Shown here: positions 228 to 15,262 of the stretch, piece after piece
Position numbering within the stretch: the first letter of the stretch is position 1
Layout: each line of letters begins with the position of its first letter
Source of the DNA: Caldisericaceae bacterium
GTDB lineage: Bacteria > Caldisericota > Caldisericia > Caldisericales > Caldisericaceae
Length of the DNA: 64,000 nt
Direction: 5' to 3'
Assembly: GCA_049967855.1 (NCBI GenBank)
Contig: JBMFRX010000005.1
Span: 15,344-79,343 of the forward strand
Notes under the pieces: generated by a model
Told to the model about the DNA's origin: nothing
The model's database searches: none
What the model saw: only the letters and a program-made list of their open reading frames with translations
Position numbers and translations under genes: made by a program

Positions 228-1463
228 TCACCTCGTCTCAGAAAAGAAATGAACTTCGTCATTTAATTTCTCTTTCATTCTTATTGCATCAACAGGACAT
301 ACTTGCATGCACATTGCACAACCAGTGCACTTTTCTTCATCTACAGAAGGAGTTCTTGTTTCCGAGTTCCACTCTATTGCCATATGGCCACCATCATGGC
401 AGGCTGCATAGCAGAGACCGCAACCAATGCATTTGTCTGCGTTGATTTCTGAGTGAGTTTCGGGCTTTGGAAGGTCTTCCTGATTTTTAATATTCGGCAG
501 AGCTTTGCCTACAATGTCGCTTGGACTGCTGAAGCCCATTTCGTCAAGATAATGTTCAAAACCACTCTTAAGGTCTCTTATTGTCCTGAATCCATAGTGC
601 ATAGGAAGCGTGCAGAATTGAACATTCTGTGCGCCAACAGCCATAAATTCAACAGCATCTTTCCAGTTAAAAGCCCCGCCATTGCCAGATATTACTATGT
701 CGACATTCTTGGCAATTTCTGCAATCGTTCTTAAGGTTAAGGGCTTTATCGCAGGTCCTGATAGTCCTGAGTAGGAACCTTCGCCAAATAGGGTCGGGTA
801 TGGTTCAAAAGTCTTGATATCGACACCAAGGAGAGATGGCACAGTATTGCTTGCAGTTATCCCGTCGGCCCCACCTCTTTTGACAGCTTTTGCAACTTCG
901 ACTATGTCGGTCACCTGAGGGGTGATTTTGATTAAGACAGGCGTAGTGTCAGCGGCTTCTTTTACCCAGCGTGTGACTTTTTCAGTGGCCTCTATGCTTT
1001 GAGCAAGCATCTTTCCTGCCTCTTCGCCCATACTGCCCTGTGGGCAACTGAAACTGCACTCAATGAGGTCGGCACCTGCTTTTTTGAGTCGCCAGACGAG
1101 ATTTTGCCAATCCTCTTTGCTTGCTCCCATTATTGAAGCTGCAATCATCCTGTCGGGGAATTCTTTCTTCAGGTACTTAATTCGCTCTTCTATATCGTTT
1201 ATGTGATACTGAGAGATAAGGTCAATGTTTCCCAGGCCAACGACTTTCTTGCTCATTGGACCAAAAGATGACATCATTGGATTTTTCAAGTTCACTGGGT
1301 TGTTTTCAACGGAAGTTGTCTTAAGGATCACACCAGCCCAACCTGCTCTTAAACCATTTTCCGCTATTTCAAGTTCGTCAGTTGGAGGTGCAGCCGAAAG
1401 AATAAAAGGGCTTTCGAGGTGCAATCCCAGGAAATTTATGGATAGATCTCTTCTCTTATACAT
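228..1463 (-). CDS. preA: NAD-dependent dihydropyrimidine dehydrogenase subunit PreA
   Basis: DHOD-like FMN barrel (SAAPPT, LKT, NIDLIS, SCPQG, IKITP, GLSGPAIKP) plus two C-terminal 4Fe-4S motifs. Start moved to MYKRR (ATG 1463, GGAGGAG RBS). Confidence 0.88.
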   Translation of the reverse strand: MYKRRDLSINFLGLHLESPFILSAAPPTDELEIAENGLRAGWAGVILKTTSVENNPVNLKNPMMSSFGPMSKKVVGLGNIDLISQYHINDIEERIKYLKKEFPDRMIAASIMGASKEDWQNLVWRLKKAGADLIECSFSCPQGSMGEEAGKMLAQSIEATEKVTRWVKEAADTTPVLIKITPQVTDIVEVAKAVKRGGADGITASNTVPSLLGVDIKTFEPYPTLFGEGSYSGLSGPAIKPLTLRTIAEIAKNVDIVISGNGGAFNWKDAVEFMAVGAQNVQFCTLPMHYGFRTIRDLKSGFEHYLDEMGFSSPSDIVGKALPNIKNQEDLPKPETHSEINADKCIGCGLCYAACHDGGHMAIEWNSETRTPSVDEEKCTGCAMCMQVCPVDAIRMKEKLNDEVHFFSETR

Positions 1464-2724
1464 TTTCTCCTCCTGAAAGATATTGCAAAATATTCTGTGC
1501 TGCTTCTTTGCCGTCGTGGACAGATTCAACGATTGTGCTTGCCCCTCTCACTATGTCGCCGCCAGCAAATACGCCTTTGACAGATGTCATATAGTTCTCA
1601 TCAACTTTGATAAGGTGATTTTCGGTTTTTTCAAGCTCAGGGAAATAGTTAGATGCTTTCTGTCCTATGGCTATTATGACTGCATCGAGCGGGATAACAA
1701 AATCCGAATCTGGCACTTCCTCAAAGGTGCTTCTTCCAGATGCATCAGGAGCGCCAAGCCGTGCCCTCCTTACAAGAATCCCTTGCACTTTGTCAGAGCC
1801 TCTAACTTCAAGCGGTATGGCAAGGAATTGGAAGGTAACTCCCACGTTGGTTGCCTCGTCTATTTCGTCCTTGAATGCTTTTAGTTCTTTTAATCCTCTG
1901 CGGTATATAACTTCAACATCTCTATCTCGGTTTTCAAGTTTAAGGACTGTGGCAATTTCAATTGCAACATTACCTCCGCCTATTACGCCCACTCTTTTCC
2001 CGAGCCCTGTTTTGAGGCCAGACTTGGCAATTTTGAGAAGTTCCCTTGCGTAGTATACGCCTCTCAGGTTTGAATTGATGTTTGGCAAATCAAGTTCGCC
2101 AGTGAGTCCAGTGGAAATAAAAACAGCGTCAAACCCCTTTTCAATCTCGGAAAGACTTGTAATTTTCTTGTCTTTCACTTCACTTACGAAGTTCCTTAGA
2201 ATAAATTTAGTTTCCTTCTCTGTGATTGCAGTGTCAAGTCGAGCCGCTGAAATCTCATGCACTGGAATTCCGCCAAGGTTTTTCTTCTCAAATATGACGG
2301 TTGAAACACCCTCTTCTCCAAGTTCTCTTGCACAAGCCAATCCCGCAGGGCCTCCGCCAATGATTGCAACTTTTTTTGCTCCCATCTCAGGCTTTGCAAA
2401 ATTCTTGTAGACATCTGTTGAATCTGTGACAAACCTGTGGAGTTCACGAATTCTAATTGGTGAGTCGATTTTTGCGCGTGTGCAGGCAGACTGGCAAAAA
2501 CTTTCTTCGGGACAGACACGCCCGCATGTTTCAATTAATGGATTAGCTTCAACCAAAATCTCATGTGCGCCATTGAGGTTTCCTGTACGGATTGATTGAA
2601 TAAACTCAGGGACTGGCACATGAGCTGGGCAAGCTTTCTCACAAGGGGCATCATAGCAGTAAAGACATCTCTCTGCCTCTATGAGGGCTTCTTCTTTTGA
2701 AAGGCTTCTCTTCTGTTCTTCCAT
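1456..2724 (-). CDS. preT: Dihydropyrimidine dehydrogenase subunit PreT (GltD-like FAD/Fe-S oxidoreductase)
   Basis: EAERCLYCYDAPCEKACP, CGRVCP, GGGPAG, GGGNVA, FAGGD motifs; overlaps preA. Confidence 0.88.
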   Translation of the reverse strand: MEEQKRSLSKEEALIEAERCLYCYDAPCEKACPAHVPVPEFIQSIRTGNLNGAHEILVEANPLIETCGRVCPEESFCQSACTRAKIDSPIRIRELHRFVTDSTDVYKNFAKPEMGAKKVAIIGGGPAGLACARELGEEGVSTVIFEKKNLGGIPVHEISAARLDTAITEKETKFILRNFVSEVKDKKITSLSEIEKGFDAVFISTGLTGELDLPNINSNLRGVYYARELLKIAKSGLKTGLGKRVGVIGGGNVAIEIATVLKLENRDRDVEVIYRRGLKELKAFKDEIDEATNVGVTFQFLAIPLEVRGSDKVQGILVRRARLGAPDASGRSTFEEVPDSDFVIPLDAVIIAIGQKASNYFPELEKTENHLIKVDENYMTSVKGVFAGGDIVRGASTIVESVHDGKEAAQNILQYLSGGENV

Positions 2725-8201: not shown

Positions 8202-8229
8202 TTGACTTTTGGTGTATTTTTGCTAAAAT
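8202..8229 (+). promoter_or_regulatory. sigma70-type promoter of the regulator-acn-icd-aclBA operon
   Basis: TTGACT-16 bp-TAAAAT with TGn extension. Confidence 0.65.
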
Positions 8230-8273
8230 CAAGATGCAATAAAAAATTTTAAACGATATTCAAAAATTTTGAA

Positions 8274-8951
8274 ATGTTTAAAAAAAATGATGCACGCACA
8301 ATAGAATCACTGAAAAATGTTGTTAAGGGCCTGGCCGCGTTTCTAGGAGACGATGCGGAAGTAGTATTACATTCACTTGAAGATATGAACCATTCGATTG
8401 TGGCAATAGAAAACGGGCATATAACAGGAAGAGTCGTTGGGTCTTCACTTACTGACGCAGGCAGGAAAATCATAAAGGATGTGAACATCAACGATAAGCC
8501 CTTTATCGGTCCTTACAGAAGTATTTCACCAACAGGCAAAATCTTAAGGTCTGTCACCATTCCTATCAAGAACCCAGAGAAAGAGGTGATAGGTTTCATA
8601 TGTATCAATATGGACATAGCCAAATTCCTGCAGCTTGAGAAACTTGTGAGCGACTTTACAGAGTTTTCGAGAGAGAAGATATCAAATGGAGATCTTGAGA
8701 AGACAGGCGACAACATAGAACTTGAAGACCTTCGCAGGAAAATATTTGAAGAAGTTTTAGTGAAGAGCGGAGCCAAAGGTGAAATCCCTTTGAAAGAACG
8801 CAACAAATTCATCATAGAAGAACTCTACAGGAGAGACTTTTTTAGAGTAAAAGATTCGATTGATTTTGTAGCTCAAAAGCTTGGCGTGTCAATTTTCACT
8901 GTCTATAACTATTTAAGGGAATTGAAATTCGAAAAAAACGAAAGGAGGTAG
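8274..8951 (+). CDS. YheO/DauR-like PAS + HTH transcriptional regulator
   Basis: EVVLHSL...SIVAIENGHITGRVVG...LTD, LRSVT, IGFICINMD; C-terminal VAQKLGVSIFTVYNYL HTH. Confidence 0.88.
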   Translation: MFKKNDARTIESLKNVVKGLAAFLGDDAEVVLHSLEDMNHSIVAIENGHITGRVVGSSLTDAGRKIIKDVNINDKPFIGPYRSISPTGKILRSVTIPIKNPEKEVIGFICINMDIAKFLQLEKLVSDFTEFSREKISNGDLEKTGDNIELEDLRRKIFEEVLVKSGAKGEIPLKERNKFIIEELYRRDFFRVKDSIDFVAQKLGVSIFTVYNYLRELKFEKNERR

Positions 8952-8953
8952 TT

Positions 8954-10915
8954 ATGGGTAAGAACATTATTGAAAAAATCCTTGACAGTCACATTGTCGA
9001 AGGATTGCCCCAAAAGGGAGAGGAAGTTGGTATCAAGGTTGACCAGACTCTGACTCAGGATGCAACTGGTACTGCTGCTTATCTTGAGTTTGAGGCGATT
9101 GGATTTACTGAAGTCAAAACAGAAGCTGTAAGTTACGTTGACCACAACACTGTACAGGTAGGCTTTGAAAATGCTGACGACCACAAATACCTGCGAACTG
9201 TTGCCGAAAAGTACGGGATTACTTTTTCACGGCCAGGCAATGGTATCTGCCATCAAGTGCATCTGGAGAGGTTTGCAAAACCAGGGAAAGTGCTTATTGG
9301 TTCAGACAGCCACACTCCCACTGCTGGAGGCGTAGGTTCACTTGCAATAGGAGTTGGCGGACTCGATGTTGCTGTGGCAATGGGCGGTGGTCCATTCTAT
9401 CTTAACTATCCAAAGGTTATCAAAATCAACCTTAAGGGACATTTGCAACCTTGGGTTTCTGCGAAGGACGTGATTCTGAAAGTGCTTGAGGTGCTTACGA
9501 CAAAAGGAAATGTGGGCTATGCAATTGAGTATGCTGGAGAAGGTGTCAAAACGCTTAGCGTTCCAGACAGAGCAACTATTACCAATATGGGAGCTGAAAC
9601 AGGTGTAACAACTTCGGTTTTTCCATCAGACGAGATAACAAAAGATTTTCTCAGGAAGGAAAATCGCGAAGAGGATTGGATTCTGCTTGAGCCAGATTCT
9701 GACGCAACGTATGACAAGGTGATTGAGTTAGACCTTTCAGAGATTGAACCAATGGTTGCCCTTCCGCATTCTCCAGACAACGTGAAAAAAGTAAGTGAAG
9801 TTGAAGGGACAAAAGTGAACCAGGTAGCCGTGGGAAGTTGCACTAACTCTTCCTACAGAGACCTTATGACTGTCGCTAACATTCTGAGAGGGAGAGTGGC
9901 TTACAAGGACCTTGAGTTTGGAGTCGCACCAGGGTCAAGGCAGGTAATTGAAATGATTACCGAAAATGGCGGAATGGATGCTCTTGTTAAAGCTGGCGCA
10001 AGGATAATGGAAACTGCTTGTGGTTTTTGCATTGGTAATAGTTTCTCTCCAGGAAGCGGCGAGGTATCACTGAGAACAAATAACAGGAACTTTAAGGGAC
10101 GCAGTGGAACGGCGGATGCAAACGTCTACCTTGTGAGCCCAGAGACAGCAGCTGCCGCAGTTATAACAGGAGAGATTACTGACCCAAGAAAATTAGGAGA
10201 AATGGGCATAAAATATGAGGACATTAAGCTCCCCGATAGGTTTATAAAGGATGATTCTATGTATATCTTCCCGTTGCCAAAGGAAGAACGTGAGAAAGTG
10301 ACAGTGTTTAGCGGGCCAAATATTCAACCTATACCAAAGAATGATCCACTTCCTGAGTCTTTGAAGGGCTATGCAACTATTAAAGTTGGTGACAAAATTA
10401 CTACAGATCACATAATGCCTGCAGGGCAATATTTGAAGTACCGTTCGAACATTCCCAAGTATGCAGAACATGTTTTTGAACCAGTTGACCCGACATTTGC
10501 AAATAGAGCGCTTGAAAACAAGCAGAAAGGGTTTGCTAATTTTGTAATAGCTGGTGAAAGCTATGGTCAGGGGTCGTCAAGAGAGCATGCTGCGCTTTGT
10601 CCAATGTATCTTGGAGTGAAAGCAGTCATAGCTAAAACGATCGAAAGGATACATCTTGCAAACCTCGCTAATTTTGGCATTGTTCCGCTTCAGTTTGTCA
10701 ATCCTTCAGACTATGATTTTGTTGAACAGGGCGACGAAATCGAGATTCCTGATATAACAAAGAGCCTTGAAGATAAGAAAGAAGAAATTGTGGCTTTTGA
10801 CAAGACAAAAAATAGAGAAATGAAGCTTAAAGTTATGTTGACTGAAAGACAGATCAATTTCGTTTTAGCAGGAGGGCTATTGCCCTATACAGGAAAGATA
10901 GGAGGCAAGGAATGA
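8954..10915 (+). CDS. Aconitate hydratase (short ~650-aa single-chain type)
   Basis: QDATGT, DHN, GNGICHQ, DSHT, GSCTN, CGFCIG (three Fe-S Cys), NRNF, TTDHI, GSSREHA. Confidence 0.92.
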
Positions 10916-12132
10916 AAATTACAGTAGAAAACGGGAAAATGAATGTTCCCGACAACCCAACGATTCCTTACATCATTGGTGATGGCATTGGAATCGACAT
11001 TACTCCAGTAGCATTAAAGGTTTTTGATGCTGCCGTTGAGAAGGCCTATGGTGGTAAGCGCAAAGTCGAGTGGATGAAAGTGCTTGCAGGGCAAGAGGCA
11101 ATTGACAAAACAGGAGAACTTCTCCCGAAGGAAACACTTGATGCAATCAAAGATTACGTCATTTCAATTAAAGGTCCTCTTGAAACGCCAATAGGGAAAG
11201 GTTTCAGGTCGCTGAACGTCACACTCAGGCAAACACTTGATCTTTTTGTCTGCTTCAGACCCGTGAAGTACATCAAAGGAGTTCCATCTCCTATGAAGGA
11301 GCCAGAGCTTGTTGATGTTATGGTGTTCAGAGAAAATACCGAGGATGTCTATGCTGGCATAGAGTGGCCTGCGAATTCTGATAAAGCAAGAGAAGTAATT
11401 AATTTTTTGAAGGAAAAGATGGGGGTAAACATCCGAGAAGACTCAGGAATTGGTATAAAACCTATAAGCATAACTGGTTCACGGAGAATTGGCAAGGCTG
11501 CCATAGATTATGCGCTTGAGCATGGAAGAAAATCAGTGACTATTATGCACAAGGGAAATATTATGAAATACACCGAAGGGCTCTTCCAGGCAGAGATTTA
11601 TAAACTTGCAGAAGAACAATACAAAGACAGAGTTATCACCGAGGAGGAAGTCAATGAAAAATATGGAGGAAAAGTTCCTCAAGGTATGCTGATTCTCAAA
11701 CACAGAATTGCCGACTCAATGTTCCAGCAGATGATTTTAAGGCCTGACGAATATGATGTAATAGTTACGCCAAATCTCAACGGAGATTACATTTCAGATG
11801 CAGTTGCTGCGCAGGTTGGAGGAATTGGCATTGCCCCAGGAGCAAATATCAACTTCGAGAACAAGATTGCACTCTTTGAGGCAACTCACGGCACTTCCCC
11901 GAAGCATGCAGGTAAGAACGAAGTCAACCCTGGTTCGATAATTCTTTCAGGAGCGGAAATGTTCGAATATATGGGATGGAAGGAAGTAAAACAAATGATT
12001 CTTAACTCCATCGAAAAAACAGTCCTTGAAAAATACGTTACGTACGACTTTGCTCGTCTGATGGACGGAGCAACAAAAGTTTCAACTTCTGAGTTTGGTG
12101 ACAGAATGATAAAGAATATGGAGGCAATTTAA
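10912..12132 (+). CDS. icd: Isocitrate dehydrogenase (E. coli-type homodimer)
   Basis: [60 protein letters not shown]. Confidence 0.95.
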
Positions 12133-13376
12133 TGGCTCAAAGAGGAATAAGAGAGTTCCATGCTAAGAAGTTTCTCTCTAAATTTTTTGAAGAGCATCCA
12201 GAATATGGTTTTAGCTATGACGGAAGAATAGTTCTTGTAACCCCAGAGTCAAACTTCGAAAAACTGGCTGAAGAAAATAGCTGGCTCAAGGAAGGAAGAC
12301 TCGTAGCCAAGCCAGATATGCTCTTTGGAAAGAGAGGCAAACATGGTCTCGTCCTCCTCAATGCGACCTTTGATGAAGCAGTGAATTGGGTTCAAGAAAG
12401 GATGAATAAAGAAGTTCAGGTGGGTAAGACAAAAGGGGTTCTTACCCACTTTTTGATTGAACCTTTTGTGCCTCATGAAAAGGAGTACTACGTCGCCATT
12501 AAGACAGAGGAAGAAGGCGACAGAATATATTTTTCAGACATAGGCGGAATAGACATTGAGGAAAATTGGGAACATGTTGAGGAATTTTTTGTACCGATTG
12601 AAGGCAAAATCGAACAAATGCATCTTGAGGGAATTGACCCCTTGATTGAATCTTTTATTAAAGCTCTGTACAATTTCTTTGTGGAATACGATTTCACTTA
12701 CCTTGAAATAAATCCTTTTGCAATAAACAATGGAAAAGTTGTGCCTCTTGATTTTGTTGCAAGACTTGACGACACTGCCTTATTCAAGGACAGCGTGAAA
12801 TGGGGTGATGTAGAATTCCCAACACCTTTCGGAAGAAGTTTTACTAAAGAGGAACAATACATAAGAAGCCTCGACGAGAAAACTGGGGCGTCGCTCAAAC
12901 TTACAATTCTTAACCCTGACGGCCATGTATGGCTTATGGTTGCAGGCGGGGGAGCAAGTGTAATCTACACTGACACTGTTGTTGACCTTGGCTTTGGGCA
13001 GGAGCTGGCAAATTATGGAGAGTACTCTGGCGACCCAACTGAGCAAGAAACTTATGAATATGCAAAGACGATACTTGACCTTATGACAAGGAATAAGGAT
13101 GAGAAAGGAAAAGTTCTCATCATTGGTGGTGGGATTGCCAACTTTACGGATGTTGCAAAAACTTTCAAAGGAATAATAAGAGCTCTTACGGAGTACAAAG
13201 ATAAGCTCAAAGAGAATAATGTGAAGATATTCGTTAGAAGAGGCGGCCCAAATTACAAAGAAGGGCTTAAGATGATGGAAAAGCTTGGTGCTGATATAGG
13301 CGTACCGATAGAAGTTTACGGACCAGACCTCCATATGACCCGCGTTGTCAAAATGGCGCTCGGAGGCGAAAAATGA
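12132..13376 (+). CDS. aclB: ATP-citrate lyase subunit B (ATP-grasp + citrate-binding)
   Basis: [66 protein letters not shown]-type rather than SucC-type motifs. Confidence 0.92.
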   Translation: MAQRGIREFHAKKFLSKFFEEHPEYGFSYDGRIVLVTPESNFEKLAEENSWLKEGRLVAKPDMLFGKRGKHGLVLLNATFDEAVNWVQERMNKEVQVGKTKGVLTHFLIEPFVPHEKEYYVAIKTEEEGDRIYFSDIGGIDIEENWEHVEEFFVPIEGKIEQMHLEGIDPLIESFIKALYNFFVEYDFTYLEINPFAINNGKVVPLDFVARLDDTALFKDSVKWGDVEFPTPFGRSFTKEEQYIRSLDEKTGASLKLTILNPDGHVWLMVAGGGASVIYTDTVVDLGFGQELANYGEYSGDPTEQETYEYAKTILDLMTRNKDEKGKVLIIGGGIANFTDVAKTFKGIIRALTEYKDKLKENNVKIFVRRGGPNYKEGLKMMEKLGADIGVPIEVYGPDLHMTRVVKMALGGEK

Positions 13377-15205
13377 ACATATTTGAAAGAAACACTCAGG
13401 CAATAATATACGGTAGGCAGACAAAACCTGCTCAGAGGATGCTTGATTTTGACTTCATTGCTAAAAGGGAAACTCCTTCTGTGGCTTGTTTTATAGACCC
13501 AACAGAGAGTGGATTTGAAACGCTTTTCTTTGGAAGCGAAGAAGTTTTGATTCCTGTTTACAAAACGATTAACGAGGCAGTCAAGAAGCATGGGGATGCG
13601 ACTGTTATGGTTAATTTTGCTTCGTTCAGGTCTGCTTATGAAACCACTTTTGAGGCAATAAACACAGAAACTATAAAAACAATCGTGGTGATAGCAGAAG
13701 GAGTGCCTGAAAGAGACGAAAGGATACTCGCTCACCTGGCAAAAGAAAAGGGAAAGGTAATTATAGGGCCTGCAACTGTTGGTGGAATAGCTGCAGGCAA
13801 GTTCAGGATTGGAAATACTGGTGGAACTATTGAAAACATTGTTGCCTCAAAACTGCACAGGCCTGGTAGTGTAGGACTTGTTACTAAGTCTGGCGGAATG
13901 CTTAATGAAATGTTCAATATTGTAGCCAATAACTCTGATGGTGCTTTTGAAGGTATTGCTATTGGTGGTGACAGGTACCCTGGCTCATCTCTTGTTGACC
14001 ATCTTGTGAGGCTAAACAACATTCCTGAAGTTAAGTTTCTTGTGATGCTCGGAGAGGTTGGCGGCCTTGAGGAATACAAAGTAATTGAGGCTCTGAAAAA
14101 TGGCCAAATAAACAAGCCTCTTGTGGCTTGGGTTACGGGGACGTGCTCAAAGATTTTCCCAACAGAAGTTCAATTTGGGCATGCAGGAGCTCGGGCCAAT
14201 GCCACCAACGAAACTGCTGACAGCAAAAATATTGCCCTTAGGGAAGCAGGCGCAATTGTTCCCTCATCATTTGATGAACTGCCAGAGAAGATCAAAGCAG
14301 TCTACGAAGAACTAAAGAAGAGCGGTGTCATTGGAGAAGTTAATGAGTTTACCCCGCCATCCCTTCCTATCGATTATGATACTGCTGTCAAGAACGGAAT
14401 CGTTCGCAGGCATAGGCAGTTTGTGACAACTATTTCTGACGACAGGGGAGATGAGGTAAAGTATGCTGGCATTCCTCTTTCAGAGCTGATTGAGTCTAAG
14501 AAGACCATTGGTGATATCATAGGTTTGCTTTGGCTCAAGAAACAACTTCCTGAATATGCCGCAAAATTCATTGAGCTTGTTATAGAGACAGTTGCAGACC
14601 ACGGACCCTGCGTTTCAGGAGCTCACAATGCTATTGTAGCAGCTCGTGCTGGCAAAGACCTTGTCTCATCAGTTGCTTCTGGATTGCTGACAATAGGGCC
14701 GCGGTTTGGAGGAGCTATAGACGGAGCTGGATACTACTTCAAGTGGGGTAAAGACAACAACTTGAGTGCAAGAGAGTTTGTTGATGAGATGAAGGAGAAA
14801 GGTATACCAATACCTGGCATTGGGCATAGAGTTAAAAGTCTTAAGAATCCAGACAAAAGAGTGGTTATTTTGAAGGAGTTTGCGAAGAAAAATTTCTCTC
14901 AGACTGAATATCTTGACTATGCACTCGAAGTTGAACAAGTTACAACTTCCAAAAAAGAGAATCTCATTCTTAACGTTGATGGATGCACTGGCGTGTTGCT
15001 TGTTGATTTGCTGAAATCACTTGGCTTTAATGACGAGGAAATCAAAGAGCGGATAGATGCTGGATTGTTGAACGCATTCTTTGTGCTTGGAAGAACCATC
15101 GGAATGATAGGGCATGTGATCGATCAAAAGATGCTTAAATCAAACCTTTATAGAACTCCGTATGACGATGTGTTGTACAAATTACCTCGAAAGGAAGACC
15201 TATAA
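13373..15205 (+). CDS. aclA: ATP-citrate lyase subunit A (CoA-binding + citryl-CoA lyase domain)
   Basis: QRMLDFD, NFASFRSA, GPATVGG, phospho-His FGHAGA, DHGPCVSGAHN, IGPRFGGA, GIGHRVKS, LILNVDG. Confidence 0.93.
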   Translation: MNIFERNTQAIIYGRQTKPAQRMLDFDFIAKRETPSVACFIDPTESGFETLFFGSEEVLIPVYKTINEAVKKHGDATVMVNFASFRSAYETTFEAINTETIKTIVVIAEGVPERDERILAHLAKEKGKVIIGPATVGGIAAGKFRIGNTGGTIENIVASKLHRPGSVGLVTKSGGMLNEMFNIVANNSDGAFEGIAIGGDRYPGSSLVDHLVRLNNIPEVKFLVMLGEVGGLEEYKVIEALKNGQINKPLVAWVTGTCSKIFPTEVQFGHAGARANATNETADSKNIALREAGAIVPSSFDELPEKIKAVYEELKKSGVIGEVNEFTPPSLPIDYDTAVKNGIVRRHRQFVTTISDDRGDEVKYAGIPLSELIESKKTIGDIIGLLWLKKQLPEYAAKFIELVIETVADHGPCVSGAHNAIVAARAGKDLVSSVASGLLTIGPRFGGAIDGAGYYFKWGKDNNLSAREFVDEMKEKGIPIPGIGHRVKSLKNPDKRVVILKEFAKKNFSQTEYLDYALEVEQVTTSKKENLILNVDGCTGVLLVDLLKSLGFNDEEIKERIDAGLLNAFFVLGRTIGMIGHVIDQKMLKSNLYRTPYDDVLYKLPRKEDL

Positions 15206-15232
15206 TAGGCAATCATAACAAGTTATGCAAAC

Positions 15233-15262
15233 GAGAGCTCTCATTTATTGAGGGCTCTTTTA
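15233..15262 (+). terminator. Intrinsic terminator after aclA
   Basis: AGAGCTCTCA-TTTAT-TGAGGGCTCT followed by TTT. Confidence 0.7.

Follow-up and report, generated by a model that had tools for sequence, protein, structure and literature searches.

A regulated aconitase, isocitrate dehydrogenase and ATP-citrate lyase operon in a putative Caldisericaceae peptide fermenter: a possible reductive outlet for 2-oxoglutarate

The 64,000-nucleotide stretch of a Caldisericaceae genome analyzed here (the window; contig JBMFRX010000005.1, positions 15,344 to 79,343) carries five genes at 8274-15205 on the forward strand, encoding a YheO-like transcriptional regulator, aconitase (acn), isocitrate dehydrogenase (icd) and the two subunits of ATP-citrate lyase (ACL; aclB and aclA). 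The operon is real, intact and conserved, and in a minority of the family its place is taken by a succinate-forming module, an exchange that provides a new handle on the direction in which it works. We see an even chance that the operon reductively carboxylates 2-oxoglutarate derived from amino acids and cleaves the resulting citrate to oxaloacetate and acetyl-CoA, thereby acting as a regulated outlet for 2-oxoglutarate.

A preliminary description of this DNA had reported a promoter, the five genes and a terminator, with abutting or overlapping stops and starts. The open reading frame calls and family assignments on the window confirm this layout: a gap of 2 nt separates the regulator from acn, and the following junctions are overlaps of 4, 1 and 4 nt. 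The features, all on the + strand, are as follows.

8202..8229, sigma-70-type promoter (-35 and extended -10), with 10/12 consensus matches plus a TG extension; recurs in 8/8 aligned ACL loci
8239..8273, candidate operator, an A/T-rich direct repeat (period about 20 nt) that lies downstream of the -10 box and ahead of the regulator start
8274..8951, YheO-like transcriptional regulator (PAS_6 + HTH_22)
8954..10915, acn, aconitate hydratase of PRK07229/TIGR01342 type (PRK07229, 926.6 bits vs. a cut-off of 612)
10912..12132, icd, isocitrate dehydrogenase, probably NADP-dependent (TIGR00183, 601.7 vs. 567.3; also passes the PRK07006 cut-off)
12132..13376, aclB, ACL small subunit, ATP-grasp and citrate-binding (PF24948 + PF16114)
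13373..15205, aclA, ACL large subunit, with CoA-binding, phospho-His and citryl-CoA lyase domains (PF02629, PF00549, PF00285)
15233..15262, probable terminator, an 11-bp hairpin (15233-15259) with a short U tail, between the convergent aclA and ispE-like genes

The hairpin is strong (z = -4.46; 0/200 shuffles equally good), although its U tail is short and the terminator pattern scan did not call it. The acn and icd products are the sole LeuC/aconitase-like and LeuB/Icd-like matches, respectively, in the whole genome. A recent foreign origin of the operon was rejected, as the GC content at third codon positions (0.38-0.42) matches that of the genome (0.37 +/- 0.04) and an RpoC tree places the operon as ancestral. 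Codon bias was uninformative as an estimate of expression; it is weak, with GroEL only at the 38th percentile.

The relatives offer a natural experiment, with one locus, one regulator and two exchangeable cargos that share 2-oxoglutarate. We compared 61 genomes of the class, 26 from the family (this one counted) and 35 others. The ACL module was found in 20 of the 26 family genomes and a module of SucCD, KorDABC and a DASS transporter in the remaining six, with no genome containing both (0/26). Full-length aclA and Icd were each present in 19/26 family genomes and 0/35 others, and 41/61 class genomes (the 35 plus the six) have no Icd match. Two ACL-type genomes are incomplete: one (G012, 77% complete) has regulator-acn-icd plus an aclA tail, at contig ends, and was counted as having the ACL module, while the other (G025, 75% complete) has aclBA only. 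Orthologs of SucC and of four-subunit KorA occur in exactly the six non-ACL genomes of the 26, and these six have no aclA, icd or PF00285 match.

Five of the six succinate modules stand behind an orthologous regulator at the equivalent locus; that of G002 lies elsewhere, without the regulator. The order in the five is oxidase cluster, regulator, sucC, sucD, korDABC, DASS, followed by pheS-pheT-polX in the four whose contigs extend that far. ACL loci such as that of G009 read oxidase cluster, regulator, acn, icd, aclB, aclA, (ispE), pheS-pheT-polX. The upstream oxidase cluster thus flanks both cargos (8 ACL and 5 succinate loci), as does pheS-pheT downstream (5 and 4 loci, respectively). The genes downstream in the window are those of its ACL relatives, and its oxidase cluster is on another contig. 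The best PDB matches of this cluster are 1y56 A/B, which we take to be the L-proline dehydrogenase of Pyrococcus.

In the RpoC tree (28 genomes: 20/26 of the family, including four of the six with the succinate module, and 8 outgroups), ACL is found in both basal subclades and the included succinate-module genomes are nested, suggesting that the succinate module replaced an ancestral ACL module once or twice. The only carbon-skeleton intermediate common to the two cargos is 2-oxoglutarate, and they should therefore either both consume it or both supply it. Since no match to succinate dehydrogenase/fumarate reductase (Sdh/Frd) was found in the six succinate-module genomes, succinate must exit or enter via the transporter of the module.

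The regulator was matched in 23/25 family relatives, and those of the succinate-module loci nest within the ACL-module regulators (support 0.999), indicating that they are orthologous. A search of solved structures returned two weak, unrelated matches only. The promoter scan yielded 22 sites vs. 13.0 +/- 3.8 in shuffles and by itself is weak support for the site at 8202-8229; the -35/-10 pair found at the aligned position in ACL-operon loci is absent there in 2/2 aligned succinate-module loci. The operator-like repeat is common to both cargos and missing from three regulator paralogs: it outperformed base shuffles, which break up A/T runs, at p<0.05 in 16/18 ACL-module, 4/5 succinate-module and 0/3 paralogous-regulator loci. 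With a matrix built from 16 relatives, this genome excluded, positions 8239-8273 score 26.5, with a single further site above threshold genome-wide (15.1). This segment is a candidate operator, to which the regulator would bind. With just one other weak operator-like site in the genome, a wider regulon was discarded as a clue to direction. The paralogous regulators precede a Rid protein plus a D-cysteine-desulfhydrase-like gene, an amino-acid ABC transporter, or oadA.

AclB matches PF24948 (244 bits) and PF16114 (300 bits), both above cut-off, and the three AclA domains lie within a single 610-aa frame that scores far under the SucD and citrate synthase cut-offs. The catalytic motifs are intact, as initially described: AclA retains H270, H410 and D536, which, from the ACLY literature, we take to be the phospho-His and the lyase His/Asp catalytic positions, and D536 aligns with the Asp replaced by Ala in PDB 6znw. 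By domain make-up, fusion and catalytic residues AclAB qualifies as an ACL, and is predicted to cleave citrate. Judged by similarity, the enzyme belongs to the Methanothrix/eukaryote-like group: AclA scores 802 bits to Methanothrix 6hxi_B, 738 to the human enzyme and 444 to 6hxj_B, and AclB scores 508 (full-length alignment to Methanothrix 6hxi_A), 423-427 (human) and 189 bits (6hxj_A). The 12 AclA loci of the named collection are labelled Caldiserica, Caldisericales, Caldisericum or Caldisericota (8), TA06 (1), WOR-3 (2) and Bathyarchaeia (1), and database homologs with a named source belong, among others, to Thermoplasmata, Odinarchaeia, Promethearchaeota, Anaerolineae and Desulfurobacterium. 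One locus labelled Bathyarchaeia (L049, G064) reads aclB-aclA-acn-icd, with proC as the next gene; its genome further encodes a Si-citrate synthase and gives a Sdh-like match.

Some AclA homologs depart from this pattern. Four relatives have a full-length AclA with Gly at the catalytic Asp and about 20 changes at otherwise invariant sites of the lyase domain (L033:10464-12293, G009; L034:7368-9197, G004; L035:10428-12257, G001; L036:5189-7018, G016). Their lyase halves are 88-95% alike and 57-58% like that of the window AclA, with AclB unchanged. Separate intact lyase genes lie directly behind two of them (L033:12488-13477, G009; L034:6226-7191, G004), while no second PF00285 match was found in G001 and G016. 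The catalytic Asp is missing from 7/106 aligned database AclA homologs, and stand-alone lyases of 307-347 aa also recur in the database. The Gly variants may represent a re-split synthetase plus lyase system, or a new activity. A further group of proteins (866-1040 aa; P0004-P0013, P0016, P0017, P0055, P0062, P0115) carries one AclA-like unit and, behind it, part of another.

The host genome (1.30 Mb in 42 contigs, Caldisericota-type, 99.99% complete, 0.5% contaminated) yielded no Si-citrate synthase, PF00285 matching AclA only, and no Re-citrate synthase, pyruvate carboxylase, OadA or indeed any HMGL-like protein. Queries with E. coli proteins (E<=1e-3) detected no Sdh/Frd, SucAB, fumarase, aspartase, malate dehydrogenase (Mdh), malic enzyme, Ppc, GltB or citrate lyase; those for SucCD, Frd, fumarase and Mdh matched only ACL and FdrA, with no SucC ortholog. 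PF14010, PF02910 and an ortholog of four-subunit KorA are likewise absent from the genome, and no onward route from succinyl-CoA was found there. The genome-wide search that the preliminary description had called for (citrate synthase, korAB, frd, sucCD, fum, mdh, por) thus turned up only pyruvate:ferredoxin oxidoreductase (POR), plus a TIGR03710 2-oxoacid:acceptor oxidoreductase pair on contig C7. Its statement that no citrate synthase, citrate transporter, 2-oxoglutarate:ferredoxin oxidoreductase (OGOR) or Frd lies nearby is correct for the locus; genome-wide it has to be qualified by the C7 pair and by two PF03600-family transporters. Its view that ACL serves a non-autotrophic purpose is borne out, with neither type of citrate synthase, nor SucCD, Sdh/Frd, fumarase or Mdh, found in this nearly complete genome.

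No biosynthesis orthologs for Leu, Ile/Val, His, Trp, Pro, DapB, SerC, AroA, ArgB/H, CarAB or GltB were found among the references tested, while the breakdown of histidine to glutamate is largely present (hutU, hutI, formiminotransferase). The genome encodes POR, VOR and IOR, a GTP-type phosphoenolpyruvate carboxykinase (PEPCK) adjoining threonine genes, an E. coli-like NADP-type glutamate dehydrogenase (GDH), two GlnA, pyruvate phosphate dikinase (PPDK), acetate kinase, two phosphate acyltransferases and an Nfn-like pair. No match in the genome was obtained for HgdAB of the hydroxyglutarate route, glutamate mutase of the methylaspartate route, methylmalonyl-CoA mutase, ScpC or a PutA-type protein, and none of the three routes of glutamate fermentation tested (methylaspartate, hydroxyglutarate, or succinate via Kor and succinyl-CoA synthetase, SCS) could be assembled. 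Gene content of this kind suggests a peptide fermenter able to form glutamate and equipped with none of the tested routes for degrading it.

We infer the following scheme from these data, in which the enzyme activities, their direction, the ligand of the regulator and all fluxes are predictions. Glutamate from peptides, histidine and probably proline would be converted to 2-oxoglutarate by transamination or GDH. Icd would carboxylate 2-oxoglutarate to isocitrate with CO2 and NADPH, aconitase would turn isocitrate into citrate, and ACL would cleave citrate, with ATP and CoA, to oxaloacetate and acetyl-CoA. Oxaloacetate could then supply aspartate and threonine, or reach pyruvate via GTP-PEPCK and PPDK, and acetyl-CoA would go to acetate with a gain of ATP; the route would also re-oxidise NADPH. 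A more ambitious version, which is possible but on which we would not rely, makes the operon the core of an undescribed glutamate fermentation, with 2-oxoglutarate carboxylated to citrate at the expense of CO2 and NADPH, citrate cleaved by ACL, and oxaloacetate processed by PEPCK, PPDK and POR. Overall, this would amount to glutamate + 2 H2O -> 2 acetate + CO2 + NH3 + 2[H], with about 1 ATP, the ATP yield and electron sink being approximate.

The preliminary description had left two directions open, citrate formation by ACL or reductive carboxylation. We lean towards the latter because of the module swap, the amino-acid auxotrophy and the thermodynamics. Further points in its favour are the proline-dehydrogenase-like matches of the flanking oxidase cluster, the catabolic role in Thermococcus of the chain found in the swapped module, the genes for making glutamate from histidine and the many class genomes without Icd. 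Free energies were sampled using a value of +5.6 kJ/mol for ACL (10.1101/2025.03.31.646503) along with further standard values and assumed concentration ranges. When aspartate aminotransferase was taken to be at equilibrium, with an Icd dG0' of -7 to -10 kJ/mol, the oxidative direction via ACL had a negative dG in 2-7% of samples, vs. 100% under the same conditions with citrate synthase in place of ACL. The reductive route from millimolar 2-oxoglutarate allows a comfortable isocitrate ceiling of 5-1400 uM.

Several observations weigh against the reductive reading. With an older Icd value (-21 kJ/mol), 49-51% of oxidative samples were negative, a coin toss. Isocitrate could not rise above 0.03-0.14 uM at 10 mM ammonium if Icd drew on the same NADP pool as deamination by GDH, so the reductive route would depend on transamination, low ammonium or high CO2. 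On gene content the anabolic chain has all its parts (GTP-PEPCK, POR, NADP-type GDH), the C7 oxidoreductase pair is present, and both modules could supply 2-oxoglutarate, the succinate module by succinate import and reductive carboxylation. The swap, strong positional evidence as it is, appears to represent only one or two evolutionary events. Outside the family, exclusivity fails: two of the four genomes of other phyla with the cluster also have SucC, and one of the four has a true citrate synthase. Finally, these queries detected neither module in 23 of the 35 genomes that belong to the class but not to the family, and glutamate mutase was above cut-off in 0/61 class genomes; a glutamate outlet is therefore not universal. 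Our prediction that genomes lacking both modules would have the methylaspartate route failed on this latter count, and a second prediction, that sucCD and kor would be neighbours outside the family as well, was not borne out in any of the 3 loci examined.

The alternative that survives best, although we consider it rather unlikely, is that ACL stands in for citrate synthase: oxaloacetate from PEPCK and acetyl-CoA would yield citrate and ATP, then 2-oxoglutarate, NADPH and glutamate, with the swapped module using imported succinate. The operon layout parallels the aconitase-citrate synthase-Icd operons of Streptococcus and Clostridium. There is no other citrate synthase in the genome, and an oxaloacetate source (a PEPCK in 25/26 family genomes, GTP type here), aconitase, Icd and aminating enzymes (NADP-type GDH, with two GlnA) are all in place. 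When coupled to GDH, the conversion of oxaloacetate to glutamate is near equilibrium (negative dG in 27-58% of samples). There is precedent, in the accessible portions of the respective papers, for citrate formation by ACL in Desulfobacter postgatei (10.1101/2025.03.31.646503) and for GTP-PEPCK as a suggested source of oxaloacetate in Thermococcus kodakarensis (PMC11921379). However, uptake already covers most amino acids in this host, histidine provides it with glutamate, and the reaction is disfavoured at a 2-oxoglutarate/oxaloacetate ratio fixed by aspartate aminotransferase. The 41 class genomes that manage without Icd make glutamate synthesis by the citrate route look dispensable, and the alternative requires that the succinate module be fed by imported succinate.

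It is improbable that the operon is a reversible valve with no dominant direction, balancing C4 (aspartate), C5 (glutamate) and NADPH pools. All three steps are near equilibrium, with dG ranges straddling zero under some assumptions, and such a device would go well with a regulator of its own and just one strong operator-like site, but the succinate module, without Sdh/Frd, cannot yield C4 amino-acid precursors and is thus not an equivalent valve.

Even less probable is citrate catabolism, in which imported citrate would be split by ACL and partly oxidised via aconitase and Icd; it would leave the swap unexplained. The two PF03600 proteins belong to the CitMHS Pfam family, but both are under the DASS and ArsB cut-offs and match no NCBIfam citrate-carrier model at E<=1e-12. 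CitT, CitC, CitE, CitF and CitG have no match in the genome, no TctA or 2-HCT was seen among the transporter candidates scanned (most of 51 multi-membrane proteins), and no ACL operon in any locus examined contains a transporter gene. Neither a linked carrier nor CitCDEFXG or oxaloacetate decarboxylase of a citrate fermentation system was recognized, and the combination of citrate synthase and citrate uptake that the preliminary description had named as refuting its view was not seen. The ordinary reductive tricarboxylic acid (rTCA) cycle, for all the presence of aclAB, POR and the C7 oxidoreductase, deserves hardly any credence and is already contradicted by the missing SucCD, Sdh/Frd, fumarase and Mdh, by the broad auxotrophy and by PF02910 matches in just 2/26 family genomes.

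Among further observations, PEPCK types are mutually exclusive in the family (GTP 10/26, ATP 15/26, both 0/26). With a PEPCK in all but one family genome, we rejected the idea that oxaloacetate is linked by transamination only. Stand-alone OadA/PycB-like genes occur in 6/26 family genomes, all with the ACL module (e.g. L115:925-2379, G010; L078:8338-9807, G005), that of G010 following a paralogous YheO-type regulator. Elsewhere in the host genome (G000), a complex-I-like membrane cluster (C12:25131-33326, L073; NuoB/D/H, two subunits of antiporter type and a GltD-like flavoprotein of 617 aa) is possibly an NAD(P)H-linked ion pump, and FdrA with an AllG-type oxamate carbamoyltransferase subunit (C2:19533-24133, L075) suggests purine or allantoin catabolism. 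Two genes at 228-2724 (-) of the window, one with a GltD-like match, presumably resemble PreT/PreA dihydropyrimidine dehydrogenase. In NCBIfam, C2:91559-92758 (L066:13560-14759) is closest to a serine palmitoyltransferase of Bacteroidota type, its 552 bits falling short of the cut-off of 640.

If the operon is indeed the core of a glutamate fermentation, the many acn-icd-aclBA operons of heterotrophs, bacterial as well as archaeal, would be signs of amino-acid catabolism with transient CO2 uptake rather than autotrophy. If the reductive reading is right, anaerobic communities would have an extra route of glutamate breakdown, and aclAB counts there would report peptide fermenters. The predicted products of glutamate differ between the two cargos: acetate and aspartate with 13CO2 uptake for ACL, succinate for the swapped module. 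The preliminary description had warned that such uses confound aclAB as a carbon-fixation marker. The accessible texts of PMC6461988 and 10.64898/2026.04.10.716911 do use aclAB as a marker of rTCA, and the use here is indeed non-autotrophic, but the warning was overstated: besides the D. postgatei precedent, the available part of one genome survey requires about 90% pathway completeness in addition to ACL (PMC9802188, whose main text, as far as available, does not mention Caldiserica). Few ACL-bearing taxa possess a complete rTCA cycle according to the available part of 10.1101/2022.10.25.513756. Citrate goes unmentioned in the accessible part of PMC7015854. Our literature search, the scope of which excluded supplements and most subscription journals, found no report of the operon in Caldisericota, of the swap or of glutamate fermentation via ACL.

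Several known systems resemble parts of this picture. The oxidative cycle of D. postgatei, with its ATP-yielding ACL, provides a precedent in vivo for citrate formation by the enzyme, as far as the accessible text goes, but it is a full respiratory cycle, whereas this genome has none. The GDH-OGOR-SCS chain by which T. kodakarensis catabolizes glutamate to succinate (PMC9986279, in its available part) is the enzyme chain of the replacing module in 6/26 family genomes, although these relatives use a SucCD-type ligase and a DASS transporter, and this genome has the ACL module instead. The ACL-type rTCA cycle of Chlorobium and Campylobacterota includes the same three reactions joining 2-oxoglutarate to oxaloacetate and acetyl-CoA; here, however, there is no C4 arm, with SucCD, Frd, Fum and Mdh all missing, and ACL is Methanothrix/eukaryote-like. 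The ACLY-A/B enzyme of Methanothrix (Methanosaeta) concilii (6hxi, 6znw) shares the two-subunit layout and the catalytic His/Asp and is the best PDB match of both subunits, but the enzyme described here is part of a regulated acn-icd-aclBA operon in what appears to be a bacterial peptide fermenter. In mammalian cells, reductive glutamine carboxylation runs isocitrate dehydrogenase in reverse with NADPH, followed by aconitase and ACLY, and feeds lipids and aspartate; the steps are like those of the proposed route, which would here serve as a bacterial fermentative outlet.

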